Below are positions 318 to 19,668 of a stretch of DNA of 64,000 bases, piece after piece; positions within the stretch are counted from its first letter, which is position 1; each line of letters begins with the position of its first letter. Position numbers and translations under genes: made by a program. The notes under the pieces are model-generated. The model ran no database searches and was not told the DNA's origin. It saw nothing but the letters and a program-made list of their open reading frames with translations. The stretch is from Candidatus Poseidoniia archaeon (lineage in GTDB: Archaea; Thermoplasmatota; Poseidoniia; MGIII; CG-Epi1): assembly GCA_029936395.1 (NCBI GenBank), contig JAPYSW010000002.1, positions 3,950 through 67,949 of the forward strand. The letters run 5' to 3'.

Positions 318-1811
318 ATGACAGATTATGATAATTTCATAGGCCGAGTTAAAGAATTGAGTCTAATTGGTAGCCTTTCAGGCTTAATGGGATGGGATCA
401 AGAGACAATGATGCCTCCTAAAGGTGGTAAATTACGTTCAGACATGATGGCCTTTCTTTCAAGTCAGGCCCATAAGAGAATGACAGACCCTGAAATGGGA
501 GGGTTATTAGATTCTTTAGAGTCTCAAGATTTGACAGGTGAACAAGCGGCCAATGTCAGAGAGGTTCGCCAATCTTATGATAAAGCAACTAAACTTCCAG
601 CAGAATTAGTCGAAGAGAAAGCACGTCATAAATCTAAATCATTGCAAGTATGGCAAGAAGCTCGTTCAGAAAATGATTTTGAAAAGTTTAAACCATATTT
701 AGAAAAAACAGTAGAATTAACTTGTAAAACTGCAGAATATTATGGATATGAAGATAACATTTATGATGCACTTTTAGATATTTTCGAACCAGGAATGACT
801 GTTTCTCAGTTAGATCCGTTATTTTCAGGACTTCGGGAAGCGATTGTTCCTTTAGTTCAAGCAGTCGGTGAAAGTCCAAATCAACCAGATACAAGTTTCT
901 TAGATATTGGTAAATTTTCAGAAGAAAAGCAAAGAGAGTTTTCAATGAAGGTAGCCGAAAGTATTGGCTTTGATTTTGATGCAGGACGTATGGACACCTC
1001 GACACATCCTTTCTGTTCAGGAGCTGGCCCTAATGATGTAAGATTTACGACACGGTATGATGACGAATTTCCATTTGGTTGTCTTTACGGAGTAATGCAT
1101 GAAACAGGCCATGGGACGTATGAACAAGGACTTTTGGAAGAGCACGAAGGCACTCCAATGGGCCAAGCAGTTTCGTTAGGAATACATGAATCCCAGTCAA
1201 GGATGTGGGAGAATATGGTTGGGCGTAGTAAAGAATTTTGGAGTTTTTATATTGATGAATTCAAGAATTGTTTCGATCACCTTCCTTCAGATCTTGATGT
1301 TGATACTTTGCATCGAGCCGTTAATACAGTCCAACCTTCATTAATTCGTGTAGAATCTGATGAAGCTACATACAATTTACACATAATGGTTCGTTATGAG
1401 ATTGAAAAACAATTAGTTAGCGGAAATATATCTGTAGGAGATTTACCAGACTTCTGGAATAGTAAAATGGAAGAGTATTTGGGTGTAACACCTCCTAATA
1501 ATACTAAAGGTGTTCTCCAGGATATCCATTGGTCTATGGGGGCTATTGGTTATTTCCCAACATATACACTTGGTAATCTATACGCAGCTCAATTGTATGC
1601 AGCAGCTCTAGCAGATGATCCAAACATTCCTAACAAAATTGCTAAAGGAGAGTTTACGGCTTTATTAGATTGGATGCGCAGCCATATTCATGTTCATGGA
1701 TCTAAATTACTTCCAGCTGATTTACTCCGACAAGCGACCGGTAAGGACCCAAGTAGCGACGATTTCGTTAAATATCTAAAGTCAAAGTACACAAAAATTT
1801 ACAATCTTTAG
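318..1811 (+). CDS. Carboxypeptidase Taq family (M32) zinc metallopeptidase
   Basis: HEXXH zinc site 'HETGHGTYEQG', plus 'HESQS' and 'IRVESDEATYNLH' motifs typical of M32. Length 497 aa. Confidence 0.88.
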   Translation: MTDYDNFIGRVKELSLIGSLSGLMGWDQETMMPPKGGKLRSDMMAFLSSQAHKRMTDPEMGGLLDSLESQDLTGEQAANVREVRQSYDKATKLPAELVEEKARHKSKSLQVWQEARSENDFEKFKPYLEKTVELTCKTAEYYGYEDNIYDALLDIFEPGMTVSQLDPLFSGLREAIVPLVQAVGESPNQPDTSFLDIGKFSEEKQREFSMKVAESIGFDFDAGRMDTSTHPFCSGAGPNDVRFTTRYDDEFPFGCLYGVMHETGHGTYEQGLLEEHEGTPMGQAVSLGIHESQSRMWENMVGRSKEFWSFYIDEFKNCFDHLPSDLDVDTLHRAVNTVQPSLIRVESDEATYNLHIMVRYEIEKQLVSGNISVGDLPDFWNSKMEEYLGVTPPNNTKGVLQDIHWSMGAIGYFPTYTLGNLYAAQLYAAALADDPNIPNKIAKGEFTALLDWMRSHIHVHGSKLLPADLLRQATGKDPSSDDFVKYLKSKYTKIYNL

Positions 1812-1813
1812 AG

Positions 1814-1889
1814 TGGTAGCCCCGCTCGGATTCGAACCGAGGTCTCAGGCTCCAAAGGCCTGAATGATGGACCGCTACACTACGGGGCT
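1814..1889 (-). tRNA. tRNA-Gln (anticodon UUG) with genomically encoded CCA
   Basis: Reverse complement AGCCCCG...CGGGGCUACCA gives a 7-bp acceptor stem. Anticodon stem CAGGC/GCCUG with loop CUUUGGA gives anticodon UUG. T-arm is GGUUCGAAUCC. Length 76 nt. Confidence 0.75.
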
Positions 1890-1961
1890 TCGACCGTCTA
1901 AAGCATGGTGTCTTTAGAAATATTCCTCTGTAAGCATTAATTAATAACGGTCCCTTACTGC

Positions 1962-2228
1962 ATGAAAAGTATGACTGCCGGAGATAGGTTCATGAAAAAG
2001 ATTAGTGACTTCTATGATGGTCTAGGCTATCCTGTAGTATGGCAAGGTGAAGGTTCTAAACGTAAGTTAGAAATACAGTTTAAATCTGAATCAGGGTATT
2101 TTGTAACAGCTACTCTTTCATCTCGAGGAGAGGATGTAGTGGTAAAGGACGAGTGGGGCCGTGAAAATATTTTTAAAGCTACAAAGAGTAATTTAGAACA
2201 AATTAAAGGTTGGTCCGAAGAACGTTAG
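1962..2228 (+). CDS. Small hypothetical protein (88 aa)
   Basis: Intact ORF between the tRNA and a convergent gene. No recognisable motif. Confidence 0.3.
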   Translation: MKSMTAGDRFMKKISDFYDGLGYPVVWQGEGSKRKLEIQFKSESGYFVTATLSSRGEDVVVKDEWGRENIFKATKSNLEQIKGWSEER

Positions 2229-2872
2229 TTCGGTAATCGGCTCATACTTTTGATATTAGGTCTTGCAATTATTTCAAGATTTATTAATTTTTCATCTTCA
2301 AAATCAAATACCCAAGGTTCACACCATCCAATCTCAGTTTTCAAAATTTGTTCTGGAGTATAATTCTTTAATGACATTACGATAGCTCGTATACTATTTC
2401 CATGCGCACTAACTAAAACATTTTTCCCATCAAATACATGAGGCAATATCTTTTTTTGTAAATAGGGAATTACTCTTTCTGCAGTATCTTTTAAGGATTC
2501 TCCACCAGGAGGCGGAATATTGTAGCTTCTTCTCCAAATATGAACTTGTTCAGATCCGAATTTCTCAGCAGCTTCTGTTTTATTTTGACCAATTAAATCT
2601 CCATAATCTCTTTCATTTAGAGCCATATTTTTTTCAATCGGTAAATCTAATTTCTCAATTTCTTTTAATATAATATTTAAAGTGCTTTGTGCTCTTATTA
2701 AGTTTGAAGTGAAGGCTAAATCAAAGTCAACGTTTTTGAGAATTAGGCCAGCTTGTTCAGCTTCTTCATTTCCTTGCTGATTTAGTTCTATATCTTTCCA
2801 TCCTGTAAATCTATTTTGATCATTATAGACTGAAAGACCATGCCTCACCAAAACAAGTTTTCCTTTATTCAT
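2225..2872 (-). CDS. Histidine phosphatase superfamily protein (phosphoglycerate mutase-like)
   Basis: N-terminal 'LVRHGLS...RFTGW' (RHG catalytic motif) and 'SAHGNSIRA' second-His motif. Confidence 0.8.
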   Translation of the reverse strand: MNKGKLVLVRHGLSVYNDQNRFTGWKDIELNQQGNEEAEQAGLILKNVDFDLAFTSNLIRAQSTLNIILKEIEKLDLPIEKNMALNERDYGDLIGQNKTEAAEKFGSEQVHIWRRSYNIPPPGGESLKDTAERVIPYLQKKILPHVFDGKNVLVSAHGNSIRAIVMSLKNYTPEQILKTEIGWCEPWVFDFEDEKLINLEIIARPNIKSMSRLPN

Positions 2873-2874
2873 AT

Positions 2875-3861
2875 TTAGTTAAATGTTTCTAGTGCAACTT
2901 CTCCATATTTAGGTAACGGTTGGGCGTTTATTCCAAGTTGTTTTTCTACTTCATTTGCTAATTCTTTGGTAGATCCATGCACCGTATAGACTTGTTTTGG
3001 ATTACATTCCTCAATAAATTTCATTGTTGAACTAAAATCTGCGTGATCACTTATTGGAAATCCTGCGTCAACACCTTTCAAAGCCCATTTTGCAAAGGCA
3101 CACCATCCGGAAACTCTAGCAACTTTTGCCCCTTTTTCTCTCAACTCTTTAACCACCGGATCTGGTTTTTTACCACTTACAGAGGTTGTAGATGTAACCA
3201 ATAATCCTGGATTCTTCTTTTCAGAATCATTCAATTCATTATATCTTGTATATTCTAAAGGTATCTCATATTTTTTGTAAATATCACTTACTGAAGCAAC
3301 TTCTTCAGAAACTACAGGAGTGACTCCAGCTTGATTTGCAGTTGCAATTACTTCTTGGGACTTTCCAAGTGAATAAGCTCCAATTATTGCATTACTTTTT
3401 GAAGAAATTGCACTAATCCATGCTTGTAGATCACTCAATACTTCAGTACGGTCTGGTAAGGTTTGATCGGGCTTTCCATACGTCGATTCAACAATCAAAG
3501 TATCACAATCTCTTGGTTTTGCTATGCCTGCAGTTATAGTACCATACGGGTTGTAATCTCCAGTATAGAGAACACCTTGGCATTCAATCATGGCTGAACC
3601 TACCACATGGCCTGCAGATATGAATTCAAGCTCAAAATCATTTATCTTAAATGGGTCATGAAAATCATGAACTGTTGCTTTTGTAGCTCCCGTTCTTACT
3701 TTCATTACATCTGCAGTAGGTCTAGTCATATGGGTGTTCGGCCTTAAATGATCCGAATGCGCATGTGTTACAACACCATCCGGCCTGCCTTGTGATGGGT
3801 CTAGGTAGACTGCTCTTTTATCTTCCCTTAGACAGATTCCCTTGTAGTTGAAAATATCCAA
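2875..3861 (-). CDS. Metallo-beta-lactamase fold nuclease-like protein (short beta-CASP type)
   Basis: 'THAHSDHL' HxHxDH motif and C-terminal 'DHADF...VHGS' motifs typical of beta-CASP RNases/DNases. 328 aa. Confidence 0.6.
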   Translation of the reverse strand: MDIFNYKGICLREDKRAVYLDPSQGRPDGVVTHAHSDHLRPNTHMTRPTADVMKVRTGATKATVHDFHDPFKINDFELEFISAGHVVGSAMIECQGVLYTGDYNPYGTITAGIAKPRDCDTLIVESTYGKPDQTLPDRTEVLSDLQAWISAISSKSNAIIGAYSLGKSQEVIATANQAGVTPVVSEEVASVSDIYKKYEIPLEYTRYNELNDSEKKNPGLLVTSTTSVSGKKPDPVVKELREKGAKVARVSGWCAFAKWALKGVDAGFPISDHADFSSTMKFIEECNPKQVYTVHGSTKELANEVEKQLGINAQPLPKYGEVALETFN

Positions 3862-4386
3862 TTATTTTCCACCTTTTAATTTAAATGAATATCTAGATGG
3901 TTCTCTCCATCGATGTCCTGTTAGATAGGTACATATGCCACATCGAAAACCAATTGCTACAATACCTCCGTAGAGAGTGGCATTGTGCACTTTTTTTAGT
4001 GGAGAAGTACAAACTGGACATGGTTGTCCTGGAGATGCAAATTCACCACGGTGATGATGATGTCCACTTAGGTCATCACCAGGCTTTATTCTTCTCCATC
4101 TTTTTACTACAGGGTCATATCCAAGTCCCTGTTTTTTAAAATCATTTTCATCAGCTTCCGGTGCAGCCCCCACAGATCTCGTTCTAACGGTAACTTTAAT
4201 TTTTTTAGAAAGAATTGAAATAACTCTCATTCTTTCTGCAGATAATCTATATGTTTTGTCTACTTTCTTTAATTTTTGTAAAACTTTCTTATGAAGTTTT
4301 GTCTGTGTATCAACCGAACCTCTTTCTTTAAGAACATCCGATACAACCTTAATAATTACTTTTTTCGTAGGTTTTCGGTAGTTCAT
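3862..4386 (-). CDS. Basic zinc-ribbon protein of unknown function
   Basis: Lys/Arg-rich N-terminus, 'GHHHHRGE' His run, and CPVC...CGIC Cys pairs (zinc ribbon). Abuts the MBL nuclease gene with no spacer. Confidence 0.45.
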   Translation of the reverse strand: MNYRKPTKKVIIKVVSDVLKERGSVDTQTKLHKKVLQKLKKVDKTYRLSAERMRVISILSKKIKVTVRTRSVGAAPEADENDFKKQGLGYDPVVKRWRRIKPGDDLSGHHHHRGEFASPGQPCPVCTSPLKKVHNATLYGGIVAIGFRCGICTYLTGHRWREPSRYSFKLKGGK

Positions 4387-4481
4387 AATAGCCTAATAAA
4401 CACATCAGATAAAGGTTGTTGGGACGAGATAGCAATTCTTATTATCCCATTACAACAGTAGGTATACAACCGGAGGTTGAT

Positions 4482-5153
4482 ATGCCGTTAGAAGAAATCG
4501 ATGAATTATTTTATTTGCTGGAGAATCCAACCCGACGTAGAATTTTTCAGTTATTATCTGTTGAGCGATTATATCCTCTTAAAATGCATAAGCAGTTGTC
4601 TCGCGATATAGATGTTACTCAGCAGGCTATTGTTAAACATCTTAAGATATTGGAAGATCATGGATATGTAGAATCCCAAGATGAGCCTAGTAATCGAGGC
4701 CCCAATCGTAGAGTTTATACTGTATCAAGAGAAGCGTCTTTACACATAGATATAGGGCCATCAACGTACAAACAAAAGGCTGAAACCAATTTTGATATTA
4801 ATACGATTTCCTCTCAACATCAGAGAGTTTTAGATGCAATAGAAGAATCTCGCCAAATGGATTCCAAAGTTCGAATGGATCTCCTTTCTCGAGTTTCTGA
4901 AGATTTGCGAAAGTCAGTAGATGATGTTGAAAATGAGAGAAGAAGTTTAATGGCATTAATCGGTGAATTGAATAAGGAAATTACAGTTACAGCTCATGCG
5001 GCTGAATGTAATTATCAAGAAAGACGGTTACTGCATCATATACTACACAATAAAGATTACACTATTGAAAGTGCAGCCGTATCATTAGGACTTCGTGAAG
5101 CTGAATTACGCTTAATTCTCGAAAGTTTACAAAATAGAGGATTAACTAGGTAG
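4482..5153 (+). CDS. Winged-helix (ArsR-like) HTH transcriptional regulator with a C-terminal coiled-coil region
   Basis: 'ENPTRRRIFQLLSVERLYPLKMHKQLSRDIDVTQQAIVKHLKILEDHGYV' is a typical ArsR/wHTH motif. The start was moved to the ATG preceded by a GGAGGT Shine-Dalgarno sequence (the ORF-track start at 4416 is a TTG). Confidence 0.55.
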   Translation: MPLEEIDELFYLLENPTRRRIFQLLSVERLYPLKMHKQLSRDIDVTQQAIVKHLKILEDHGYVESQDEPSNRGPNRRVYTVSREASLHIDIGPSTYKQKAETNFDINTISSQHQRVLDAIEESRQMDSKVRMDLLSRVSEDLRKSVDDVENERRSLMALIGELNKEITVTAHAAECNYQERRLLHHILHNKDYTIESAAVSLGLREAELRLILESLQNRGLTR

Positions 5154-5200
5154 TGGCACGTATTCTTAAATAGAATAACAAAATCACTTAGTAACTTCAT

Positions 5201-5728
5201 ATGTATCGAATACGAGATTACCTAATTTTGATGTTTGCCATATGTCTATTTTCACCTTTAGTTCAAGCTGAAGATAATTTATACCGAATAGACGGTATTC
5301 CGGATAATTTACATTATGATGTTGGTGAATCTTATCTGATAAATATTACAGTAAGTGATCCAGCTTCAGTTTCATATATTATTATTACAATAACCAATGG
5401 GACATTGAGTGCAACAGACGAATTCACTGAATCTAATTTAGAACTCAATTTAACAGACGGTAGTGAAGGCTGGTTTTTCAATTGGCAAGCGCCTGCTGAA
5501 TCTTTTGATTTGGGTGAAGGTAATGCTGTATTAACAATAGATTTCAAGTATCAGAATGGAACTACGTGGGCTTCATTCGATTCAATTTTGAGATCTCCTG
5601 AAGTTGTAGAAGAGAGTGGAGCTGGAGTTCCACAATGGGCGCTTTCTTTAGCTTGGACTGGAGCGAGTGTAACTGTTATTCTAACCGTTCTTGGTGCTTT
5701 AGTTCTCAGACGCGATAGATTAACGTAA
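5201..5728 (+). CDS. Secreted protein with a signal peptide and a C-terminal TM anchor. It is a paralog of the 13452-14147 protein.
   Basis: N-terminal hydrophobic signal ending ...VQAED, four N-x-S/T sequons, and a C-terminal TM followed by RRDR. Shares the motif 'NWQAPAE...G.AV.T..F...NG' with the ORF at 13452-14147. Confidence 0.5.
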   Translation: MYRIRDYLILMFAICLFSPLVQAEDNLYRIDGIPDNLHYDVGESYLINITVSDPASVSYIIITITNGTLSATDEFTESNLELNLTDGSEGWFFNWQAPAESFDLGEGNAVLTIDFKYQNGTTWASFDSILRSPEVVEESGAGVPQWALSLAWTGASVTVILTVLGALVLRRDRLT

Positions 5729-5781: not shown

Positions 5782-6288
5782 ATGAATCGCAGAATTATTA
5801 ACAATGATGAGGAAGCTGTATCTCCGGTAATTGCCGTTATTTTAATGGTCGCTATTACTGTAGTAATGGCAGCAGTGTTGTACGCATGGTTAGGCGGAAT
5901 CATTGGTGGTTCTCCCAAAAGCCCACCAACAGGTAGTATGATGGTCTCAAGTGATGGTGCCAGCGATTGGACAGTTACTATTATTAAAATGAATCCTACA
6001 GTTTCCGTTAATTCAGTACATTGGTTTTTACTAGATATGAGTGATATGACAAAAATAGATGGTATGGTTTCAGATATTTATGGTTTTAAGGGTGGCGAGG
6101 GTGAAGCTGTGATTTTCGTTGATAATGATTTTGATGCTAAAGTAAGCCCAGGTGATCACTTCCAAATTTTTGCAGGTGAAGATGGAACTTCATTGGAACA
6201 GTACCCTGATCTTTCAGAGTATTCTTTTCGTATGAAATTCGATCCAACAGGTGACACTATTGGATATGATACAGAATTTGTATCCTAG
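5782..6288 (+). CDS. Archaeal type IV pilin (DUF1628 / class III signal peptide)
   Basis: N-terminus 'MNRRIINNDEEAVSPVIAVILMVAITVVMAAVLY' is the canonical archaeal pilin N-terminal domain. Confidence 0.8.
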   Translation: MNRRIINNDEEAVSPVIAVILMVAITVVMAAVLYAWLGGIIGGSPKSPPTGSMMVSSDGASDWTVTIIKMNPTVSVNSVHWFLLDMSDMTKIDGMVSDIYGFKGGEGEAVIFVDNDFDAKVSPGDHFQIFAGEDGTSLEQYPDLSEYSFRMKFDPTGDTIGYDTEFVS

Positions 6289-6360
6289 ATTACTAAAAAG
6301 ATTTAGCGAAGTAACCGATTGTTTTAGCTTATGCTGTGTTTTTCTTTTATGCCGATTTTG

Positions 6361-6377
6361 ACGTAAGGTATATATGC
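6361..6377 (+). promoter_or_regulatory. Duplicated BRE/TATA promoter element of the second pilin gene
   Basis: Identical 17-mer 'ACGTAAGGTATATATGC', followed by a conserved 'GGTCAGAG' just upstream of the ATG. Confidence 0.4.
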
Positions 6378-6423
6378 AGTCGTAGGATTGCTATATTTCT
6401 GACTTCGGTCAGAGGACATAACA

Positions 6424-6927
6424 ATGAAACGAAGAATAGTAAACGATGAGCAGGCAGTTTCACCTGTAATTGCGGTCATTTTAATGGTAGCTATTACAGT
6501 CGTTCTGGCTGCAGTATTGTACGTTTGGGCTAGCAGTTTTCTTGGTGGTACAACCAAGAACGCACCAACCGGCAGTATGATAGCAAACGAAGATGGAAGG
6601 GGAACTTGGACAATATCTATTGTCAAGCTTAACCCACAAGTCTCCGTAAACTCTGTACACTGGTACTTACTAGATACAGAAGGAAACACAAAGACTGATG
6701 GCTTAGTCTCTGATGTATATGGTTATTACTCTGGACAGGGTAAAGCTGTAGTATTCATAGACAACGACTTCAATGGAAAGTTGAGCCCAGGTGACAAGTT
6801 CGAAGTTCACCCGGCTGAACCAGACTCGGATTTATCAGCAGTTAGTGATGTCACTGACTACTCATTCCGTATGAAGTTCGAGCCTAACGGTGATGTAATC
6901 GGTTACGATATAAGTCTAAAATCATAG
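6424..6927 (+). CDS. Archaeal type IV pilin (DUF1628), a tandem paralog of 5782-6288
   Basis: 'MKRRIVNDEQAVSPVIAVILMVAITVVLAAVLY'. Colinear similarity to the upstream paralog along the whole length. Confidence 0.8.
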   Translation: MKRRIVNDEQAVSPVIAVILMVAITVVLAAVLYVWASSFLGGTTKNAPTGSMIANEDGRGTWTISIVKLNPQVSVNSVHWYLLDTEGNTKTDGLVSDVYGYYSGQGKAVVFIDNDFNGKLSPGDKFEVHPAEPDSDLSAVSDVTDYSFRMKFEPNGDVIGYDISLKS

Positions 6928-7017: not shown

Positions 7018-8202
7018 TTAATCTAACCAGGGAACTCGTTGTATTGGTTGAGCACCTTTAGCTAATCCTTTTTTTATTTCAGCTTTTGGTAGCAATTCTA
7101 ACACTACTTGTGAAATTGTTGCATTACGAGGGGCCTTTCCAGTTTCCAATCGATCTTCATTTAATGATGCTTCAGGATATTTTTTCAGAAAATCCATGGC
7201 GCCATCATCCCATGGTGCTGGGCCTTTATGCGGAATAATTTCAGGTAATTCAATTGATGCAGTTTCAAATATAAGATATCCTTTTTCTTCTAAATTTGCA
7301 TTCCAAGCAATAGGTTCAAAATCGGAAATAGCATTATAGATTTTACGCCCCTGTCTTTGAAGCCATGGCAACGCAGTTTCTTCATTACCTCCAGGATGAG
7401 GGAGTATTACAGTAGTAACAAATCCTTGAAATGGTCTTTTCTTATTCTTTGGGAAAAAGAAGTCTAAAGAGGGTTTAGCAAGAAATGCCTTGGATGCTAA
7501 TACTGCAGATCCGAGCCCTTTAAGTGTTACACCTGCAGCTACATTTCGATTAGAATCAACAGGATCAGCAAGCATAATTGGGGAATTTGGTGCATTAATA
7601 ATTTTGTCTATAATAAGAGGCGGCTTCCAATTAGCAATCTCGTTAACTAATTTTTCGAATCCTCCATATTTGATACATAATATTTCAACTAAATAACCTG
7701 AAAAACCACCGACTGCAGAACTAGCACCATAGGCTCCACATCCCTTCAGAAATTGCTTAGTAAGTCGAATGTCATCTTCCATCCCAGATATGTTTTTCTT
7801 TACCCATTCAGTGTGAAATGGTGTTCTATCTACAGCTGAAAGTGGTTTAGTTGAGTTCTTTATAGAATAGCAAGGAACAACATCTATTCCGATTCCCTTA
7901 ATTTCACCTCGCAGGTATGGATGCTGGGCATAGAGTTCTCTCCCATTTGGTAGAATTTTTTTTGCAATATCTAAACCTTCTTTTTTCAAATCAGCATCTG
8001 TATTAAATTTTAAAAATAGATCAATGTCTGCACCCTTAAGAAAAGTATTTTTCGCAACAGATCCGACTATTAATGAATCAAATTTTTTATCACTCAGATC
8101 ATTAGCTTTATTCATTAATTCAATTGCCAAATCTTCTATTTTCTTAGTTTCTTCTTCACTAGGTTTGATTTGGTCAATAACGGTTTTGAGTAATTGATTC
8201 AC
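7018..8202 (-). CDS. cca: CCA-adding tRNA nucleotidyltransferase (archaeal class I)
   Basis: N-terminal 'GSVAKNTFLKGADIDLFLKF' nucleotidyltransferase motif (GS...DxD). 394 aa. Confidence 0.78.
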   Translation of the reverse strand: MNQLLKTVIDQIKPSEEETKKIEDLAIELMNKANDLSDKKFDSLIVGSVAKNTFLKGADIDLFLKFNTDADLKKEGLDIAKKILPNGRELYAQHPYLRGEIKGIGIDVVPCYSIKNSTKPLSAVDRTPFHTEWVKKNISGMEDDIRLTKQFLKGCGAYGASSAVGGFSGYLVEILCIKYGGFEKLVNEIANWKPPLIIDKIINAPNSPIMLADPVDSNRNVAAGVTLKGLGSAVLASKAFLAKPSLDFFFPKNKKRPFQGFVTTVILPHPGGNEETALPWLQRQGRKIYNAISDFEPIAWNANLEEKGYLIFETASIELPEIIPHKGPAPWDDGAMDFLKKYPEASLNEDRLETGKAPRNATISQVVLELLPKAEIKKGLAKGAQPIQRVPWLD

Positions 8203-8702
8203 TCTTCTTCATTAGGGGGGCTGGATTTACCTTTACTCCAAGCTTTTATTCTTTCTTTTTTAGCTCTCTTTCTTAAGGTCGTAATATCGTCTTTGACAGG
8301 AAGTAATATAGGAATAGTAAATACAATCATTCCTAAAACAAGAGAAAAAAGACCCAATAAAATGTATTTTCTTATTATGATTGTTTCTAAAAAGAGACTG
8401 ATTGAAAGTAAAGCAAATATATTTGAAAACCATATAATTCTTCTATATGATTTTTCACTGAAAAAATATTTTCCAGCTTCATATTCTATATCTACTGAAA
8501 ATTCAGCTTCAGGTATTTCAATTTTATCTAAATTAACTTGAGGTCGTTCTCTATTTCGTTTTCTCAGATAAAGTGTTGCAAATACACCACCTGCAAGAAA
8601 TGCAGCTTGACCAAATCCAGGATCGCCAGCAGTAGTGGCAGCCCAAATAGCATACACAACTGCCAACCAAATAGCTACAAGAATTGAATAGTATAGGTTC
8701 AT
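8199..8702 (-). CDS. Integral membrane protein, about 4 TM helices
   Basis: Hydrophobic segments. Last gene of the minus-strand respiratory operon. Overlaps cca by 4 nt. Confidence 0.4.
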   Translation of the reverse strand: MNLYYSILVAIWLAVVYAIWAATTAGDPGFGQAAFLAGGVFATLYLRKRNRERPQVNLDKIEIPEAEFSVDIEYEAGKYFFSEKSYRRIIWFSNIFALLSISLFLETIIIRKYILLGLFSLVLGMIVFTIPILLPVKDDITTLRKRAKKERIKAWSKGKSSPPNEEE

Positions 8703-8715
8703 TCAATTACTAAGA

Positions 8716-9555
8716 CTAGACTCTAGCTTCCATAGTAATCGCTTCAACAGGACAGGCAAAGGCACAGAGTGTACAGCCCGTACAGGTATCGTCAAGAATG
8801 AGTGCCTTTTTCGATTCAAATTGGGAAGTTCTAGCCTTTAAGTCCCATGAAATCATATCGATTGACGCAAAATTGCAGAAATAAACGCATTGAGTACAAC
8901 CTATACATTTTTCATTATCTACTAAGGCTATGTAATTTTTCCCTCTTGGCAATGCATCTAAAGTCATCTTCCTTAGATTTTTAAACATACTTTTTGCTTT
9001 TTCGATACCAGTTGTTGGTAATTCTTCTTTAGCTAATACATTTTTAGCAGTAGTTAGCCATTTATTTGGTTTCTTGAAAAATAAAGAGGTAGCTTCTGAA
9101 ACAACTTTTGTTTGATTTTCCACAACTGCCTCGGCAGGTTTTTCTTCTTTTTCAATAACTGTATCTGTAGTTCCAGATCCAATATCAGCAGGATCGGTAA
9201 TCAGGATCGCATCTACAGGGCATACTTCTTCGCAAGCTCTACAAACAATACAATCTGGTTCTCGAGCCCCGATTGCTTTCTTGTCAGAAGCAGGATGATT
9301 TGGAGTATCAATCCAATCAAAAACATCGACTGGACAAGCATCAACGCAAGCTCCATCGGCGACACATATATCGAAATCAACGCCAACAACACTGCCCCAA
9401 ATTCCTAGCTTATCAGTTCCTACACCACCATAGGAGTCAGCATCTTTGGCCCAAATTTGAATTGGTTCATCATCTCCATCGTGGGTTGCAACTTTTGCAT
9501 ACGTAGTCATGAAATTCTTGTCGATTTCAGCCACTAATTTTCTTCCTCCAAACAA
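8716..9555 (-). CDS. Polyferredoxin-like iron-sulfur protein (4x [4Fe-4S] motifs)
   Basis: CIVCRACEEVCP, CIGCTQCVYFC, CTGCTLCAFACP and a further C-x-C-x3-CP motif. Confidence 0.7.
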   Translation of the reverse strand: MFGGRKLVAEIDKNFMTTYAKVATHDGDDEPIQIWAKDADSYGGVGTDKLGIWGSVVGVDFDICVADGACVDACPVDVFDWIDTPNHPASDKKAIGAREPDCIVCRACEEVCPVDAILITDPADIGSGTTDTVIEKEEKPAEAVVENQTKVVSEATSLFFKKPNKWLTTAKNVLAKEELPTTGIEKAKSMFKNLRKMTLDALPRGKNYIALVDNEKCIGCTQCVYFCNFASIDMISWDLKARTSQFESKKALILDDTCTGCTLCAFACPVEAITMEARV

Positions 9556-10421
9556 GCGACCAAGAATTGCATTAAATCCATCATTTCATAATCGTGATGA
9601 TGGCCTTCATCTGGATTCATTCTTTCTTCATTTAACATACATTGCATATGCATGTAACATTTAGGACAACCTCCTAACATCAAATCAATACCAGCATCAG
9701 TTCCCTGGTCCAATCTCTTTCGACGGACAGCTTTTGTGGCATCATTACAATACATCATTGAGGAAACACCACAACACAAAGCTCGTTCTTTATTATTCTC
9801 TAATTCTACCATTGTAGCTCCGTCAACAAGTTGAATTAAATCTCTCGGGGCTTCATATTCGCCCATCATTCTTCCCAGACGGCAAGGGTCATGATATGCT
9901 ACAGTTACACCTTCAGGCGCCTTAAATTTCAATCCTCGACCCTGTAGAGTTTGTGTTATATGTTCAACTTTAATTCCTAAAGTACCTGGAAGATCATAAT
10001 CTACTGCGAAAGTACGATAACATTCTGCACATGAACAAGTTATAATTTTAATCCCAGATTCCTTTAATCGCCTCATATTATGTTCTTTAAGTGCATCAAA
10101 TACTTCCAACTGACCTTGCCATAATTGGTCATGTCCTGAACATTTGAATATATTCATGTCTAGTATTAGTGGGTCAATATCAGCATAGTTCAATAATTTA
10201 ATCGACGCTGCTGCAATCGAAGCATGATCTGCATCTCCCTTATTTAGATGAGTAAATTTAACTTCGACATCCATAAAATCTACACATCCTGGAAAATATC
10301 CATATTCATGTGGCCTTTCAGGCTTCCAAGATTCTTTTTCTTCGTTCATAGCGTCTTCTACGATAAGTCTCTCAAAAAGAGGATGCGGTATTGTTCTTGA
10401 ATATGGCTTTGTTCGATTCAT
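9534..10421 (-). CDS. HdrB/GlpC/SdhE-like protein with two CCG cysteine-rich domains
   Basis: 'ITCSCAECY' and 'LCCGVS...GGCPKCYMHMQC' are CCG-domain signatures. There is no N-terminal ferredoxin domain, so it is HdrB-type rather than HdrD-type. Confidence 0.7.
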   Translation of the reverse strand: MNRTKPYSRTIPHPLFERLIVEDAMNEEKESWKPERPHEYGYFPGCVDFMDVEVKFTHLNKGDADHASIAAASIKLLNYADIDPLILDMNIFKCSGHDQLWQGQLEVFDALKEHNMRRLKESGIKIITCSCAECYRTFAVDYDLPGTLGIKVEHITQTLQGRGLKFKAPEGVTVAYHDPCRLGRMMGEYEAPRDLIQLVDGATMVELENNKERALCCGVSSMMYCNDATKAVRRKRLDQGTDAGIDLMLGGCPKCYMHMQCMLNEERMNPDEGHHHDYEMMDLMQFLVACLEEEN

Positions 10422-11473
10422 AAGCTTACTCCCATTGTGGTTAATGCTCTCTGCTCTAATACATAATCAATATATTCGATATTTTGTGGACAAACTGCAG
10501 TACACATACCACAGGTAATACATGACCACATAGCGACACCATCGTGTTCATTTTGGAATGTATTAAATATAATATTTAGTTCATTTTCTCCTTCCATATC
10601 TCTAACTGGACAGATATCATCACAGAGCCCACATTGATAACAACGATTTAGTTTAAATTCATAAATGCGTTGCATTCTTCGGTCCGTTATTCCATCAGTA
10701 TAAAGATCGAATCTTTCTTCATCAGTTAATGGTTTTGCACCTTCCGACCTTCTTCGATCCAAGAATATATATGTAATCAATGCACAACCGATAGGCCCCC
10801 AAAGAGTTAGTTGTGATAAAACATCAGTATTGACTTGTGGATAATACATTGCAATATTGGCGTTAACTGAGAAAACAGACAGCATTATGACTAATGCAAT
10901 TCCATAAACTCCGATTGCAGCTCTTACAGGATCTTCGATAGGTCGTCTTTCGTGACCTCTATTGATAACATCTCCGTATTGAGGGTCAATTAATGCACCA
11001 ATAGCTCTGTCAAGGAAAGGAACTGCAACTACAAGTCCAATAATCATACCTTGTACCAAGGTACCCCATACTTTTGCAGTCATTAGGAAAAGATGAATAT
11101 CGTTTAATCCTAAGAATGGTATACTGGATAATGGAATTAATATTTGGATATCCCAAGCCACTTTCAAACATCCGAAAGCCCATAGTAAATACCAATCAGG
11201 TAATGGAGGTGGAAAAGCAGTACCTGCCGTTGGATCTGCAGCTTCATGTAATGGAGGTGGGATAAATGCAGACAAATAGAAGAATAAAGCAATGATATAC
11301 AAACTTAAAACAGAATCTCTAGTTACTTCATGTGGATAAAGTGGTTCTCCTTTAACCATATCAGCTTCAAGAACGGAATGCTCTTCTCTATGCTCCAATT
11401 TATTTATTGTATCAAGAGACTGTTGCTCTTCTTGATGTTCATAAATCATTTCTACAGCATCATCTTCATTCAT
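10418..11473 (-). CDS. Fusion protein: cytochrome b C-terminal domain (subunit IV / PetD-like) plus a 2x[4Fe-4S] ferredoxin domain
   Basis: 'PPPLPDWYLLWAFG' corresponds to the cytochrome b PEWY motif within about 3 TM helices. The C-terminus carries 'CYQCGLCDDICPV' and 'CITCGMCTAVCPQ'. Confidence 0.62.
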   Translation of the reverse strand: MNEDDAVEMIYEHQEEQQSLDTINKLEHREEHSVLEADMVKGEPLYPHEVTRDSVLSLYIIALFFYLSAFIPPPLHEAADPTAGTAFPPPLPDWYLLWAFGCLKVAWDIQILIPLSSIPFLGLNDIHLFLMTAKVWGTLVQGMIIGLVVAVPFLDRAIGALIDPQYGDVINRGHERRPIEDPVRAAIGVYGIALVIMLSVFSVNANIAMYYPQVNTDVLSQLTLWGPIGCALITYIFLDRRRSEGAKPLTDEERFDLYTDGITDRRMQRIYEFKLNRCYQCGLCDDICPVRDMEGENELNIIFNTFQNEHDGVAMWSCITCGMCTAVCPQNIEYIDYVLEQRALTTMGVSL

Positions 11474-12438
11474 TAATGCGGTTCAGCCTCCCCTTGTATC
11501 CAAACAAGTGCCATATGGATAATAATCAAAATAGTGCCTATTAGGGGAAGAACAAAAATATGCAACCAATACATCCTAGTTACAGTATCTCCAGTTAATT
11601 GAGTCCCTCCAAATACAATTTGAGCCATTAATGGCCCCATTGCAGGTATCGACGTTGCCATTTCTAAACCAATAGACCCAGCTGCATAACCAAGAGAATC
11701 CCATGGCAGTAGATAGCCCGTATATCCAAAGAAAATAGTAACCATCAATAGGAGAGATCCCAACATCCAATTTACTTCACGTGGATTTCGATAAGCACCA
11801 ACAAAGTAAACTCTCATCATATGAAGAAATACTGAAGCAACCATGAAGTGAGCTGACCAATGGTGGACTGCCCGAATAATGTAGCCAAATGTTACCTGCG
11901 TCATAATTAATTCCATAGATTGGTATGCACCAGAAGTAGAATGGCCATTTTCATCCAATATGAATTCTCCATCAGGGACATAATAAAATCCTAGATAAAT
12001 GCCAGTAATTGTAAGAATAATATATGCGAAAAAAGACAATCCACCTAATGAGTAAAAAGGATACCAATACCATACTGATTTTATATTGTATCTTTCAGTA
12101 TGAGATTGAGGAATAGTTCGACCCGTAGCAGGTAAAAGAGTGTAAACTACTGAATAGTATTCTCTTTTTGCTAGAGAAACGTAGCGATGTAGTGCAAATC
12201 TTTCATCAATCCATGCCCATGTATCAAATATTATTCTAGGAAGTAAGCCCGTGAAGTAAAGATAACCAACACCAAACACAGCTCCAGCCATTGATAAGAA
12301 TATTAGTGGGAATGTATATTTTCTCATTAATTCTTCTAAAATTGGAGTTTCAGCATTAACAGGTAATGCAAAAAGGGCTAAACATCCAATAACTATGGTA
12401 ATAATTTTATTAATTTTCATGTTTATCCTTGTCCACAA
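11473..12438 (-). CDS. Cytochrome b (b6-like N-terminal domain, heme-ligating His pairs)
   Basis: 'HHWSAHFMVASVFLHMMRVYF' and 'WLHIFVLPLIGTILIIIHMALV' give bis-His ligation for two hemes. Confidence 0.8.
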   Translation of the reverse strand: MWTRINMKINKIITIVIGCLALFALPVNAETPILEELMRKYTFPLIFLSMAGAVFGVGYLYFTGLLPRIIFDTWAWIDERFALHRYVSLAKREYYSVVYTLLPATGRTIPQSHTERYNIKSVWYWYPFYSLGGLSFFAYIILTITGIYLGFYYVPDGEFILDENGHSTSGAYQSMELIMTQVTFGYIIRAVHHWSAHFMVASVFLHMMRVYFVGAYRNPREVNWMLGSLLLMVTIFFGYTGYLLPWDSLGYAAGSIGLEMATSIPAMGPLMAQIVFGGTQLTGDTVTRMYWLHIFVLPLIGTILIIIHMALVWIQGEAEPH

Positions 12439-13097
12439 TACTTTAGCCAGTCTAAATGATTAGTTAGGCCGATTAATCCTCCATCTTTTTCAGCAATAGG
12501 AACTACTGGAAGCCCATAAGGTGCAGGTCCCTCTAACAATTTAGCTGCTTTAACTTCACGCCCTTGTTCATCTATGTTTGTAATAACATCTAATGGATCA
12601 AACAAAGATAAGTGACAAGGGCATAAAAACATATTTTCATAGTCCTTTCCCGATATTGTACTCTTTCCTTGAGGTGTGAAAACAGGTTTACAGCATAAAT
12701 GTGGACATTTATATGTATGATAGGCCATCATCATTGCATTACCTTCATCTACACTTATTCCTAATTCTTCCATGCCACTTTCAGCAGGTACTTTTATAAG
12801 TGCTAATTGAATTTCACAACTTCCTAATTCTTCTTCTAATTCTTTTGGAGCCCAATTAACAATAGCTACATCCCAAAGATCAAAATCTTCTTTTATTGCT
12901 ATTTTCCCACCTTTATCCTCATACCATTTTCCTTCTTCTTTTTTGTAAGTAAGTGTTTCATGGGCATCATCAGAATTACATCTAGTAATTGGCGGCGGAA
13001 GTAATGTTTTCAAAGCAGGAACCGTTAATGCACCAGTCATTCCTGCGCCAGCTAAACCAATAGCACCTTGTAAAAATCCTCTACGTGTAATCTTCAT
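12423..13097 (-). CDS. Rieske [2Fe-2S] protein with a Tat signal
   Basis: 'MKITRRGFLQGAIGLAGAG' is a twin-Arg signal. 'CPHLCC' and 'CPCHLSLF' are the Rieske boxes. Confidence 0.8.
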   Translation of the reverse strand: MKITRRGFLQGAIGLAGAGMTGALTVPALKTLLPPPITRCNSDDAHETLTYKKEEGKWYEDKGGKIAIKEDFDLWDVAIVNWAPKELEEELGSCEIQLALIKVPAESGMEELGISVDEGNAMMMAYHTYKCPHLCCKPVFTPQGKSTISGKDYENMFLCPCHLSLFDPLDVITNIDEQGREVKAAKLLEGPAPYGLPVVPIAEKDGGLIGLTNHLDWLKYCGQG

Positions 13098-13099
13098 AT

Positions 13100-13471
13100 T
13101 TAACGTTCAAGTTTTGTAATAACTTTCCTCCTTCGTTTTTTAGCTTCGAGTACATCTGGCATGAATGATCTTCTATAGAAATCAATCATAAGTCCTAGAA
13201 TTAGAAATGCCATGGCTATTGTAAATGATAAAAATTGTTGATCCCAATTTTCTAGAATTCCATAAATAAATAATGAATCATACATAAGTTCAAGTAACAA
13301 TAGTATCAAAACTATTGCAAAAATTTCAAGTTGTTCTTTACCTGGAATATTTCGCAATTCTTTTCCAAGATCCTCATCCTTATAAGTGCCTAATATTTTT
13401 TGTGCATCTTCAGTGGTAAGTTCACCTTTGGCGACTTTTTCTAAAATTTCATTAACCTCGGTAATGCGCAC
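13100..13471 (-). CDS. Small membrane protein (2 TM)
   Basis: Hydrophobic core. Overlaps the upstream gene. Confidence 0.35.
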   Translation of the reverse strand: MRITEVNEILEKVAKGELTTEDAQKILGTYKDEDLGKELRNIPGKEQLEIFAIVLILLLLELMYDSLFIYGILENWDQQFLSFTIAMAFLILGLMIDFYRRSFMPDVLEAKKRRRKVITKLER

Positions 13472-14147
13472 TCCCTCCTCTAATTACGATGTAAGCAACA
13501 AATATTGATAAGAAAACAACAGCTAGTCCAATAAGTCCAATCCAATACTGCATTAGTTCTACACCAAGTTCATGAATGGAAATTTCTTCTGATGTTAATT
13601 GAGGTGTTCCCAAAGATATTGCTGTAAAGTAGGACCATTGATCACCAGTAGTTCCTACTCCATTTACCACATTAAAATACATGGTGAAAACAGCATCACC
13701 GGTGCCTTCTGCAGGGGCAGTCCATTGGAATGTCCAATTACGAGCATTATTACTATTTGTATTATGGGAAATATACGAACCATCATCCCCAATCCAATAA
13801 TTTTCATTACTCTGGTATGCACCCTCACTAACTTCACTTAGAAATCCACCATAGCGAACGGCTCCTTCTTCAGAAATTACGTTAGTATCATTTATTTGGA
13901 GAGAAATATTGTATGTTTGTTCAGGGACGTATTTTTGAGGTATACCTTCTAGATTGTACATCCCTTCATTTAGTTGGACATCAGCGTGACAAGAACAACC
14001 ATGTGCAATAGCATCAGCAGCCCATTCTTCACCTGCTCCTTCTTGGGCACCACCTGCAGGATATCCATCAACACTTTTACCAGCTATCAGTGCTGTTAGA
14101 ATCAGCAATGCAAACAGACCGTGATTCATGGTGTTACGTATGTCCAT
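13452..14147 (-). CDS. Exported protein with a C-terminal TM anchor. First gene of the Rieske/cytochrome b operon.
   Basis: Signal peptide, 'HGCSCHAD' Cys/His cluster, 'NWTFQWTAPAEGTGDAVFTMYFNVVNG' motif shared with the 5201 ORF, and a C-terminal TM. Confidence 0.45.
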   Translation of the reverse strand: MDIRNTMNHGLFALLILTALIAGKSVDGYPAGGAQEGAGEEWAADAIAHGCSCHADVQLNEGMYNLEGIPQKYVPEQTYNISLQINDTNVISEEGAVRYGGFLSEVSEGAYQSNENYWIGDDGSYISHNTNSNNARNWTFQWTAPAEGTGDAVFTMYFNVVNGVGTTGDQWSYFTAISLGTPQLTSEEISIHELGVELMQYWIGLIGLAVVFLSIFVAYIVIRGGSAHYRG

Positions 14148-18149: not shown

Positions 18150-19214
18150 GTGCAGCGTCAGCTATTCTTAACTAATTCCGATGAAGCCGTGAGTCCTGTA
18201 ATCGGTACAATTTTAATTTTAGCAATTATGCTTACAGTTACAGGAACTATGTTGGCTTGGGGCATTCCTCAAATTCAACAAAATGAAGCTTATGCCATAT
18301 ATACGTCAGCACAAAACAATCTTTTAAATTTTGATGCAGATTTGGATCATGTAATTTCTCAAGGAGAAGGAGCGTCTCGTACTTCAACAATTTCTTTTAG
18401 CTCAGGTACCTTTGTTCAACGTGAAAATTTAGATGAAATTAGATATTATTATACTGCCGTTTCTTGGTCAGATTCTAAAATAATAGGTGTTAAAAAAGGT
18501 ACTGAATCTTTTGCAATAATGGATAACTTAGAAACAGTAGATGACTATAGAATTACTTTAGTTTATCCAAACGGAACTCAATGGATTGGAGATTCCATAG
18601 ATTCTTATGTTTCAGGTTTCCCCGCACTTGATTATGGCGTTAAGGCCACATATACAAGCACTATCAATTCAACACAAGTTGGTGGATTCTTCATATATGG
18701 TACGGATTCGTTATCTTACAAATATGCCTCAGTTTCAGGAGTTTTCAAAATGCGAATGCTTAATGGCGGAGTTGTTTCTAAAGAGCCGGGCGGTCAATTT
18801 TATGTCAGTTCTCAACCACTAACTCGCTCAGTTATAAATGAAGTAATTGATCAACAAGATTCTTATGATTCATTAACACTTTATCAAACAGATTATAATA
18901 TGTCATCTTCTATAAAATCGTTAATGGCTGGTAACTTTGTTTTCGATATACGTAATCAAGGTGGTAATGATACTGCTTTGAATATTTACAGTTTACGAAT
19001 AGCTTTTGATGGAGAAAGTTCAGATGCTTTTGAAAGATATTATGTTAAGAATAATAATTTTGAATATACACAATATTACTTTTCAAAAGAGGATTCGGTG
19101 ACAGTATATAATGAATTATCAACATCAGAAATCGATGTCGAATATTCACAATCAACACCATTTGACTTTAGATTATTAGAGAGGACAATACATGTCAAAT
19201 TTAGCTTACGATGA
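18150..19214 (+). CDS. Type IV pilin-like protein (DUF1628 N-terminus) with a large globular domain
   Basis: GTG start. 'MQRQLFLTNSDEAVSPVIGTILILAIMLTV'. Many NxS/T sequons. Confidence 0.65.
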   Translation: MQRQLFLTNSDEAVSPVIGTILILAIMLTVTGTMLAWGIPQIQQNEAYAIYTSAQNNLLNFDADLDHVISQGEGASRTSTISFSSGTFVQRENLDEIRYYYTAVSWSDSKIIGVKKGTESFAIMDNLETVDDYRITLVYPNGTQWIGDSIDSYVSGFPALDYGVKATYTSTINSTQVGGFFIYGTDSLSYKYASVSGVFKMRMLNGGVVSKEPGGQFYVSSQPLTRSVINEVIDQQDSYDSLTLYQTDYNMSSSIKSLMAGNFVFDIRNQGGNDTALNIYSLRIAFDGESSDAFERYYVKNNNFEYTQYYFSKEDSVTVYNELSTSEIDVEYSQSTPFDFRLLERTIHVKFSLR

Positions 19215-19668
19215 TTCTGCAGTTTCAGAATTAATTGGTTATGTTTACACTATAGCCGTTTCCATTTTAATTTTATCTTCCATAATGTTAACTTCTACAA
19301 CAATGCTTAATGGAAATATAGCTAACACAGCCCAAGAAGAAGCCGAACAATTAGCACTTTATTTCCAACTATCGATTGAAGATTTGCTGACTACAGTACG
19401 AGAGTATCCTGATTCTTCTCCAGTTATTAAATTGGATTCCGGTATCGAATCTATAAATCATGGAATTAAGTATAAGATAAATGGGACTGCAGGTGGACTT
19501 AAAGTTACTACAATGCAGCCTAGAGGTGGTGAGTTTGAGGTAACTTTCCCTATGTCTCCTGCTATAGCTATAGAGACTACAAGTGGTTTACCATTAATAT
19601 CGACGTCTTCTTATATAGTCATATACTATGATAATAATCTAATGGTTGTCAAGTTAACCACTGGATGA
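19192..19668 (+). CDS. Pilin-like / FlaF-FlaG-like protein with a class III signal-like N-terminus
   Basis: 'DSAVSELIGYVYTIAVSILILSSIM'. Confidence 0.5.
   Translation: MSNLAYDDSAVSELIGYVYTIAVSILILSSIMLTSTTMLNGNIANTAQEEAEQLALYFQLSIEDLLTTVREYPDSSPVIKLDSGIESINHGIKYKINGTAGGLKVTTMQPRGGEFEVTFPMSPAIAIETTSGLPLISTSSYIVIYYDNNLMVVKLTTG

Follow-up and report, generated by a model that had tools for sequence, protein, structure and literature searches.

The window analysed here comprises 64,000 nucleotides of a Candidatus Poseidoniia archaeon of Marine Group III (MGIII; CG-Epi1-like), i.e., positions 3,950 to 67,949 of contig JAPYSW010000002.1 (GenBank assembly GCA_029936395.1). Its reverse strand carries, at 10418-11473, one uninterrupted open reading frame (ORF) of 351 amino acids (aa), with zero internal stops, in which the C-terminal half of a cytochrome b is fused to a domain with two iron-sulfur (Fe-S) cluster motifs. 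This fusion was put forward in an earlier note made from the sequence alone, and the observation is confirmed. The fusion gene lies in an operon with genes for the N-terminal half of a cytochrome b and for a Rieske protein, and is followed by a gene for a protein with two CCG domains. The features of the fusion and of this next gene are given below, where n-side and p-side are the cytoplasmic and the outer face of the membrane, TM stands for transmembrane and AF2 for AlphaFold2.

10418-11473 (-): fusion protein, 351 aa; cytochrome b C-terminal half (subunit IV plus helix H), linker and predicted HdrC/EtfD-type 2x[4Fe-4S] domain
11261-11311 (-): TM helix E, aa 55-71; hydropathy peak 2.39, AF2 helix 54-70
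11189-11200 (-): PDWY (aa 92-95), the Qo motif, part of the ef loop on the p-side; aligned with PDxY/PEWY in QcrB and subunit IV
11012-11062 (-): TM helix F, aa 138-154; hydropathy and AF2 helix
10871-10921 (-): TM helix G, aa 185-201; hydropathy and AF2 helix
10760-10810 (-): TM helix H, aa 222-238; hydropathy 1.75, AF2 helix 216-245; aligns to helix H of actinobacterial QcrB
10661-10759 (-): basic linker, predicted to be cytoplasmic, aa 239-271, after helix H (DRRRSEGAKPL...RRMQRIYEF)
10442-10660 (-): 2x[4Fe-4S] domain, aa 272-344; Fer4_8 4e-10, HdrC 7bkb_C 8.9e-6, eight invariant Cys
10607-10642 and 10487-10522 (-): the two cluster motifs, CxxCxxCxxxCP x2
9534-10421 (-): two-CCG-domain protein, 295 aa, the next gene; Pfam CCG 4.7e-18, in two stretches

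The PDWY motif stands within PPPLPDWYLLWAFG, and the two CxxCxxCxxxCP motifs were found at the C-terminal end, as the earlier note had it, at aa 278-289 (CYQCGLCDDICP) and aa 318-329 (CITCGMCTAVCP). When the whole ORF was searched against Pfam, the dicluster Fer4 models matched aa 272-341 only, Fer4_8 at the value listed, so that the C-terminal part is indeed a dicluster Fe-S domain. The layout described in the note also stands, but not the sizes of roughly 200 and 90 aa that it gave for the two parts: the membrane part takes up some 240 aa, the linker 33 aa and the Fe-S domain about 75-80 aa. PDWY is invariant in alignments A1 and A2; in the former, with 30 sequences that reach down to 30% identity, so are the cluster Cys (8/8). 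Amongst 35 MGIII orthologues, the Fer4 domain is the best-conserved part of the fusion (a mean of 94% per-position residue sharing with the window protein), and the linker is conserved at 88%.

Full-length orthologues, 61-98% identical, were found in 38 independent MGIII assemblies, both metagenome-assembled and single-amplified genomes, and are uninterrupted in them. The fusion proteins form at least 120 clusters at 90% identity, while clustering at 50% yields about 15 representative clusters that combine the cytochrome b C-terminal half with Fer4, eight of which also have CCG domains. The same fusion recurs in Marine Group II (MGII) and in other Thermoplasmata. The possibility that two genes were joined by a sequencing frameshift or a mis-assembly deserves practically no credence: a frameshift or chimera is excluded because the same fusion exists at 38 independent MGIII loci and in more than 120 protein clusters, and it occurs with or without CCG domains in the clusters at 50% identity. 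Longer cis fusions are, moreover, present in a closed genome of 2.28 Mb. Nothing came up in favour of such an artefact.

The membrane part was compared with the Protein Data Bank (PDB; 177,635 sequences) by means of a profile of 17 sequences (alignment A2). All 48 matches were cytochrome b or b6f subunit IV chains, by which the homology to the cytochrome b C-terminus claimed in the note is borne out. The best match, actinobacterial QcrB (9wcx_i, 1.5e-16), spans helices E to H, and subunit IV of b6f (2e74_B) was matched at 8e-13. The identification of PDWY as the Qo motif likewise agrees with its alignment to the PDxY/PEWY position and with its invariance. With the single fusion sequence, phmmer detected QcrB at 4.9e-5, and the NCBIfam model bc1_QcrB_actin matched aa 38-211 at 8e-7; all NCBIfam matches to the fusion, to the CCG protein and to the cytochrome b half stayed below the model cut-offs. 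The Pfam model PF00032 aligned from PDWY onward with 15.6 bits (E = 0.02), below the gathering cut-off of 20.7, which is passed by relatives of the fusion (P0137 with 39.5 bits, P0259 with 31.7 and P0249 with 23.2).

An exhaustive phmmer search with aa 1-265 through 1.84 billion representative sequences returned 121 relatives, amongst which are stand-alone subunit-IV-like proteins as well as full-length cytochromes b, matched directly after their N-terminal heme domain. The stand-alone homologues P0244, P0245, P0248, P0250 and P0255 end a few residues past the motif Y-E-x-K-L-N (...YEEKLNAGYYKAR), which in the fusions is located directly before the first cluster Cys (YEFKLNRCYQCG). To judge from this shared end, the fusion may have been truncated to give the stand-alone forms.

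Prediction of the TM topology from hydropathy resulted in four helices, E to H, with PDWY between E and F. The p-side loops contain 1 and 0 Lys plus Arg residues, and the n-side regions 5 and 12, the latter 12 in aa 239-351 (linker and Fer4 domain). An AF2 model of the window fusion, made with the 30-sequence alignment, has a mean predicted local distance difference test score (pLDDT) of 58, and of less than 50 in the Fer4 domain, and was used for the helices alone. Helix H of solved cytochromes b (bc1 structures) has its end on the n-side. Because helix H leads to the n-side, the number of TM helices is even and the charges follow the positive-inside rule, the Fe-S domain is predicted to lie on the cytoplasmic face, by heme bH and the Qi site, opposite PDWY and Qo. 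There is good support for both the architecture and the cytoplasmic placement, and we hold them with high confidence.

This placement does not agree with the wiring proposed in the earlier note, in which the Fe-S clusters are connected to the Qo-site partner, since the topology puts the clusters on the opposite face of the membrane, near heme bH and Qi. One polypeptide does hold both PDWY and the Fe-S motifs, but with four TM helices in between, the C-terminal domain faces away from the ef loop. Neither the Fe-S domain nor the CCG partner nor the ferredoxin partner has an export signal, and the homologous modules of HdrD and EtfD are cytoplasmic. It is, therefore, most improbable that the 2x[4Fe-4S] domain acts on the outer, quinol-oxidation side.

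The Fe-S domain appears to belong together with the product of the next gene. In PDB, the domain matched HdrC (7bkb_C) over both clusters and the helix that follows them. The closest solved relative of the 295-aa CCG protein is EtfD of Mycobacterium smegmatis (9ojn_A, 1.5e-14), and HdrB comes next (3.9e-5). The start of the CCG gene overlaps the stop of the fusion gene by ATGA. Within the 351-aa fusion itself, there are no CCG domains; the next gene provides them, and in relatives they are present in cis. By sequence, the fusion and the CCG protein together are best described as a split HdrD/EtfD-like module in the order TM - Fer4 - CCG - CCG, the Fe-S domain being the HdrC/EtfD-type first half of such a module. 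The generic soluble ferredoxin domain that the earlier note had in mind is replaced by this assignment, the second half, with two CCG domains, being the gene at 9534-10421. A free-standing 2x[4Fe-4S] ferredoxin as carrier was also rejected, the domain being covalently tethered behind four TM helices.

The fusion and the CCG protein may be considered one physical unit because they are joined in cis in relatives (a "Rosetta stone" argument). Triple fusions of the cytochrome b C-terminal half, Fer4 and two CCG domains (PF00032, Fer4 and PF02754) occur in other Thermoplasmata (L040-L043, P0121-P0153), the closed 2.28-Mb genome being one source of them. In MGII, the triple fusion is a protein of about 923-924 aa with two extra TM helices and, before the last helix, an insert of about 270 aa that is predicted to be extracellular. 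The CCG-fused homologues listed for this finding are L040-L043 and P0121-P0240. The AF2 model of one natural triple fusion, P0137 (598 aa), has a pLDDT of 70 overall and of about 90 in the CCG part; in a fold search with this model, EtfD came out on top (1.6e-14), followed by LutA and HdrB, while the membrane part led to mycobacterial QcrB. The names under which such proteins are deposited are generic ("Fe-S oxidoreductase", "heterodisulfide reductase subunit D", "4Fe-4S dicluster domain-containing protein" and "Cytochrome b(C-terminal)/b6").

EtfD is the membrane-bound oxidoreductase between electron-transfer flavoprotein (ETF) and menaquinone, in which electrons pass from ETF through the CCG clusters D1 and D2, two cubane [4Fe-4S] clusters and heme b to menaquinone (PMC13083937). 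In the first of its CCG domains, a C-T-G substitution results in a shielded, non-catalytic, linear [3Fe-4S] cluster, which has been read as an Hdr-type site adapted to pure electron transfer under oxygen (PMC13083937). The window CCG protein has an incomplete first domain, CCG1 (KC94-S-G...C131-x-x-C134, with an extra C129), the C94-S-G of which aligns to C538-T539-G of EtfD, and a complete second domain, CCG2 (C180, C216, C217, C252 and C255). Because its C-S-G aligns with the non-catalytic C-T-G of EtfD, CCG1 seems to resemble a wire and not a catalytic site. Binding of [4Fe-4S] cofactors by the fusion is likewise predicted from its cluster motifs.

CCG1 differs between clades. In the clade of the window, C-S-G is accompanied by one more Cys, placed two residues ahead of CxxC (TCSCAEC). 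Another MGIII clade keeps CCG and has CxxG in place of CxxC (TCAEGY). The full motif is kept in MGII and other Thermoplasmata, and CCG2 is invariant throughout (loci cited, besides the window: L027-L031 and L038).

Eight genes, in the order 231-aa protein, DUF7318, Rieske, cytochrome b N-terminal half, fusion, CCG protein, 279-aa protein and 167-aa protein, are conserved at 39 MGIII loci. The six besides the fusion and CCG genes are the following.

13452-14147 (-): 231-aa exported, beta-rich protein with a C-terminal TM anchor; NCBIfam choice-of-anchor V 67.8 bits, Pfam Reeler weak
13100-13471 (-): DUF7318 two-TM protein; Pfam DUF7318 3.4e-12; present in the operons of MGII, MGIII and other Thermoplasmata
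12423-13097 (-): Rieske iron-sulfur protein with Tat signal, CPHLCC ... CPCH; Rieske_proteo 7.4e-9 (NCBIfam), 7yr9_A 2.5e-4
11473-12438 (-): cytochrome b N-terminal half, b6-like, with four heme His; PF00033 1.2e-35, cytochrome b6 1q90_B 2.5e-38
8716-9555 (-): 279-aa cytoplasmic Fe-S protein; Zn-ferredoxin-like N half and a second dicluster domain; Pfam Fer4 x4
8199-8702 (-): 167-aa membrane protein, the last conserved gene; three hydrophobic segments; at MGIII loci, with a weak MGII homologue

The gene directly upstream of the fusion specifies the b6-like N-terminal half, which makes this a split cytochrome b, as the earlier note had proposed. In the alignment with b6, both His pairs coincide, and helix D has the b6-type spacing of 14 residues. 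The stop of this gene overlaps the start of the fusion gene (TAATG); with the ATGA overlap further downstream, the genes for the cytochrome b N-terminal half, the fusion and the CCG protein are translationally coupled. The predicted partners of the cytochrome b C-terminal half are thus encoded next to it, namely the b6-like N half and the Rieske protein, the motifs of which are conserved at 37-38 loci.

The position of the heme ci Cys (b6 Cys35) is occupied in the window protein by Ser129 (YPFYSLGG). This residue (FYCLGG in b6; aa 126-132 of 11473-12438) is Ser in the window and at 29 related epipelagic MGIII loci, while the Cys is kept at 12 deeper MGIII/Thermoplasmata loci and in MGII (loci cited: L027-L034, L038, L040-L043 and L045), which suggests that heme ci was lost within the family. 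At its N-terminus (aa 1-65), the protein is extended by a stretch that adds two hydrophobic segments; the counterpart of this stretch in other Thermoplasmata (L042, 5228-7843; L048, 5343-7973) is extracellular, about 600 aa long and fused to cytochrome b, and contains four Big_5 Ig-like domains.

The 231-aa protein has a signal peptide, and its sole two Cys lie within G-C-x-C-H (aa 50-54), a motif that is invariant in 36 out of 36 orthologues and is also found in MGII (AGCTCH). It was considered as a CxxCH cytochrome c and rejected, the motif being C-x-C-H and not the canonical heme c motif. Because a true cytochrome c holds the same operon position at locus L047, this GCxCH protein may be an unusual p-side redox partner, presumably that of the Rieske protein.

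On the distal side of the operon, aa 42-121 of the 279-aa protein match the Zn-ferredoxin of Sulfolobus (1xer) in PDB at 9.2e-28. The MGII operon is syntenic, but its ferredoxin gene encodes the dicluster domain alone (110 aa, 35% identical). A dicluster gene always follows the fusion, and the partner of the dicluster domain varies: there is none in MGII, a Zn-ferredoxin-like part in MGIII and, in the Fer4-FlpD protein of other Thermoplasmata, an MvhD/FlpD domain with a weakly detected FAD-binding region, resembling HdrA/QmoB (loci compared: window 8716-9555 (-); L045 12068-12400; L042 9431-11221). Pfam found no MvhD domain in the window. A comparison of these operons points to an invariant core, consisting of the Rieske/cytochrome b genes and the n-side Fe-S chain, with a distal cytoplasmic module that varies.

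Locus L047 has a variant operon (595-5462) for a cytochrome c, DUF7318, a 232-aa protein, the cytochrome b N-terminal half, a 336-aa subunit IV-Fer4 fusion, a 103-aa ORF and a UbiA-family prenyltransferase. It includes no CCG gene, and the 232-aa protein at the Rieske position is without a Pfam match. The protein cluster from L047 has a member labelled "Halobacteria archaeon" at NCBI.

Elsewhere in the window, an acyl-CoA dehydrogenase gene (53482-54660 (-)) adjoins genes for an NAD(P) transhydrogenase, a PntA-like AlaDh/PNT protein (52231-53415) and PntB (50502-51914 (-)). Two tandem paralogous proteins of about 167 aa with archaeal class III (pilin-like) signal sequences are encoded at 5782-6927 (+). 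A pilus/archaellum-type cluster at 18150-24111 (+) specifies further pilin-like proteins, a T2SSF membrane protein and, in a 753-aa ORF, a putative FlaI-type secretion ATPase, so named from reading the sequence; a second T2SSE ATPase is encoded at 41642-42874.

The system is a combination of known kinds, a Rieske/cytochrome b complex and an HdrD/EtfD wire. With subunit IV (PetD), QcrB and the cytochrome b of bc1, it shares a homologous membrane part, the PDWY/PEWY Qo motif and helices E-G(-H); with b6f, a separate b6-like N half, the four heme His, the 14-residue helix D spacing and an adjacent Rieske gene. Unlike PetD, however, the fusion has helix H, as long cytochromes b do, and a cytoplasmic 2x[4Fe-4S] domain, and unlike b6f, the partner subunit in the window clade has Ser in place of the heme ci Cys. 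EtfD (Rv0338c; PDB 9ojn) shows the same succession of membrane domain, 2x[4Fe-4S], CCG and CCG, is the closest solved relative by sequence and by fold, and has a CCG1 that is equally devoid of the second Cys (C-T-G in EtfD, C-S-G in the window). The wire of EtfD ends at an n-side heme b beside the menaquinone site (PMC13083937). EtfD differs in having its own five-TM heme-binding anchor where the window protein has a subunit IV that lacks heme and belongs to a Rieske/cytochrome b complex; in the window, moreover, the module is split over two genes and lacks a long disordered C-terminal tail.

HdrDE/HdrBC, DsrMK and TfrB resemble the window system in their HdrC-like Fer4 domain and HdrB-like CCG protein, and in HdrDE and DsrMK, the module sits on a membrane b-type cytochrome. 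Their anchor is, however, of the NarI/HdrE type, without Rieske protein or Qo site, and the window CCG1 is incomplete; no Hdr, Dsr or Tfr model of NCBIfam reached its cut-off for the window proteins. In QmoC of sulfate reducers, an HdrC-like Fe-S domain is fused to an HdrE-like cytochrome b, with HdrA/MvhD-like partners. It thus combines a dicluster HdrC-type domain with a membrane cytochrome b and has partners similar to those in the Thermoplasmata L042 and L048, but in reverse domain order, with another cytochrome b family and without Rieske/Qo machinery. In Firmicute QcrC, subunit IV is fused to cytochrome c after three helices, with the heme c domain on the p-side. There too, the C-terminus of subunit IV carries an extra redox domain, whereas in the window the fusion comes after four helices and the Fe-S clusters are predicted to be on the n-side. 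Fusions of subunit IV or cytochrome b to cytochrome c at the outer face are on record (PMC4122944). A "PDWF-FeS" clade was described by Kao and Hunte (2014), a few bacterial full-length cytochromes b fused to 4Fe-4S and MvhD or ferredoxin/flavin domains, with no Rieske gene in the cluster (PMC4122944). Here as there, a whole cytochrome b with its Qo motif is combined with Fe-S domains, but the window system is archaeal, has a split cytochrome b, PDWY, a Rieske gene in the operon and a partner of the HdrD/EtfD type. Dibrova et al. speculated that ancestral cytochromes b bore cytoplasmic oxidoreductase subunits (PMC5600118), and Tully noted only the presence of cytochrome b and Rieske genes in MGII and the lack of a canonical bc1 (PMC6336850). 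In the open-access literature, we found no description of an archaeal subunit IV-HdrD/EtfD fusion.

By analogy with EtfD, the fusion is most likely part of a port through which electrons pass between heme bH/quinone and ferredoxin or ETF as the carrier in the cytoplasm. The Fe-S module would be docked on the n-side of the Rieske/cytochrome b complex, and the wire would connect the ferredoxin-like protein of the operon and/or ETF with the CCG clusters, these with the two [4Fe-4S] clusters, and the latter with heme bH and the quinone at Qi. Because the membrane domain is a heme-less subunit IV, the terminal heme would be that of the partner subunit, bH (or ci), by Qi. Electrons would run inward, from carriers reduced in amino-acid and fatty-acid catabolism to menaquinone, as in mycobacterial EtfD, and the complex would be both a donor:quinone reductase and a quinol oxidase. 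The hosts are aerobic degraders of protein and fatty acids with a single Rieske/cytochrome b complex III, called "MGII specific" (PMC6336850), and PDWY is associated with menaquinone and low-potential chains (PMC4122944). An entry port is favoured because CCG1 is EtfD-like, the hosts are aerobic degraders, an acyl-CoA dehydrogenase gene is at hand in the window and the operon always includes a gene of the ferredoxin type. We are fairly sure that the assembly serves as an electron wire in one direction or the other. To the full statement, an inward, EtfD-like wire onto heme bH/Qi, we assign a rough probability of 0.55; the inward direction is our best guess, and we infer both the contact with heme bH and the identity of the partner. 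This would probably make it a complex III with a direct electrical socket to the cytoplasm. Only tentatively do we extend this to the proposal that the sole complex III of MGII and MGIII is a hybrid, in which an EtfD/HdrD wire on subunit IV passes ferredoxin/ETF electrons to heme bH/ci and Qi.

Several points weigh against the inward wire. The sequence evidence sets no constraint on the direction of flow. AF2 confidence in the Fer4 domain is low (pLDDT <50-55 in both single-chain models), neither model was used for the distance to heme bH, and that the proximal [4Fe-4S] cluster lies within electron-transfer distance of this heme is a proposal. His583, which completes the second cluster of EtfD, corresponds to Glu in the window CCG protein, so the clusters may differ. 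MGII and deeper MGIII keep all or nearly all of the ten CCG Cys, as in catalytic HdrD, as well as the heme ci Cys, and the ancestral role may have been disulfide chemistry. In some relatives (L047), finally, the Fer4 fusion exists without any CCG gene.

Part of this evidence would fit a flow in the opposite direction, a serious rival even if we think it unlikely. Quinol oxidation at Qo would then bifurcate, one electron passing to the Rieske protein and a p-side acceptor, the other via hemes bL and bH and the [4Fe-4S]/CCG clusters to a cytoplasmic disulfide or ferredoxin-like protein, which would turn complex III into a bifurcating reductase based on quinone. Homologues of the module are HdrBC/HdrD, TfrB and DsrK, disulfide reducers that are fed by membrane hemes b; the CCG motifs are complete or nearly so in MGII and some MGIII clades, where the heme ci Cys is kept too; and the HdrA/QmoB-like protein (Fer4, MvhD/FlpD and a weak FAD-binding region) added by other Thermoplasmata is typical of bifurcating systems. 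The bacterial cytochromes b fused to 4Fe-4S and MvhD provide a precedent, and the anammox Rieske/cytochrome b cluster with NAD(P)-reductase subunits is another possible one. PDWY, in addition, indicates a low-potential menaquinone chain, with a reach of about -200 mV (PMC4122944). In the window clade, however, CCG1 has lost the Hdr-type Cys just as it has in EtfD, which is non-catalytic. Aerobic heterotrophs over-produce low-potential reductant and would hardly need more of it, and the transfer from menaquinol to ferredoxin against the membrane potential is energetically marginal, as estimated from standard potentials. Less probable still, and in our view quite doubtful, is an Fe-S domain that is no through-wire and instead senses redox state, helps the complex to assemble or stay stable, or serves the low-potential b hemes as a safety valve under oxidative stress. 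The L047 variant without a CCG gene and the decay of CCG1 and of the heme ci Cys in the epipelagic clade would be coherent with such a role, and stand-alone homologues that end at the junction motif YExKLN imply that some lineages can do without the Fe-S domain. It is, though, the best-conserved region (94%), with eight Cys invariant to 30% identity, and further Fe-S partners are always present in the operon, as expected of a carrier chain. An inward, EtfD-like wire thus remains the reading that we prefer.

Rieske/cytochrome b complexes are normally closed on the cytoplasmic side, electrons passing through quinol/quinone and the outer-face Rieske centre alone. An Fe-S chain on the cytoplasmic end of cytochrome b would be a third port of complex III. 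If this port leads inward, electrons from ferredoxin (2-oxoacid oxidoreductases) and from ETF (beta-oxidation) would enter the Q cycle directly; if it leads outward, bifurcation at Qo would make cytoplasmic reductant. The hybrid complex, if it exists, would provide the first case in nature of electrons entering a Rieske/cytochrome b complex from the n-side by a hard-wired route, and a genetic model for the long-debated route from ferredoxin to heme ci in b6f cyclic electron flow. The fusion also shows that EtfD/HdrD modules can be re-anchored on a non-cognate membrane subunit. Because older clades keep the heme ci Cys, the family would offer a natural test case for electron injection into the n-side heme of b6-type complexes. 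MGII and MGIII archaea are globally abundant plankton and major remineralisers of organic matter in the ocean, and either direction of flow would alter the models of their respiratory chain and energy yield.

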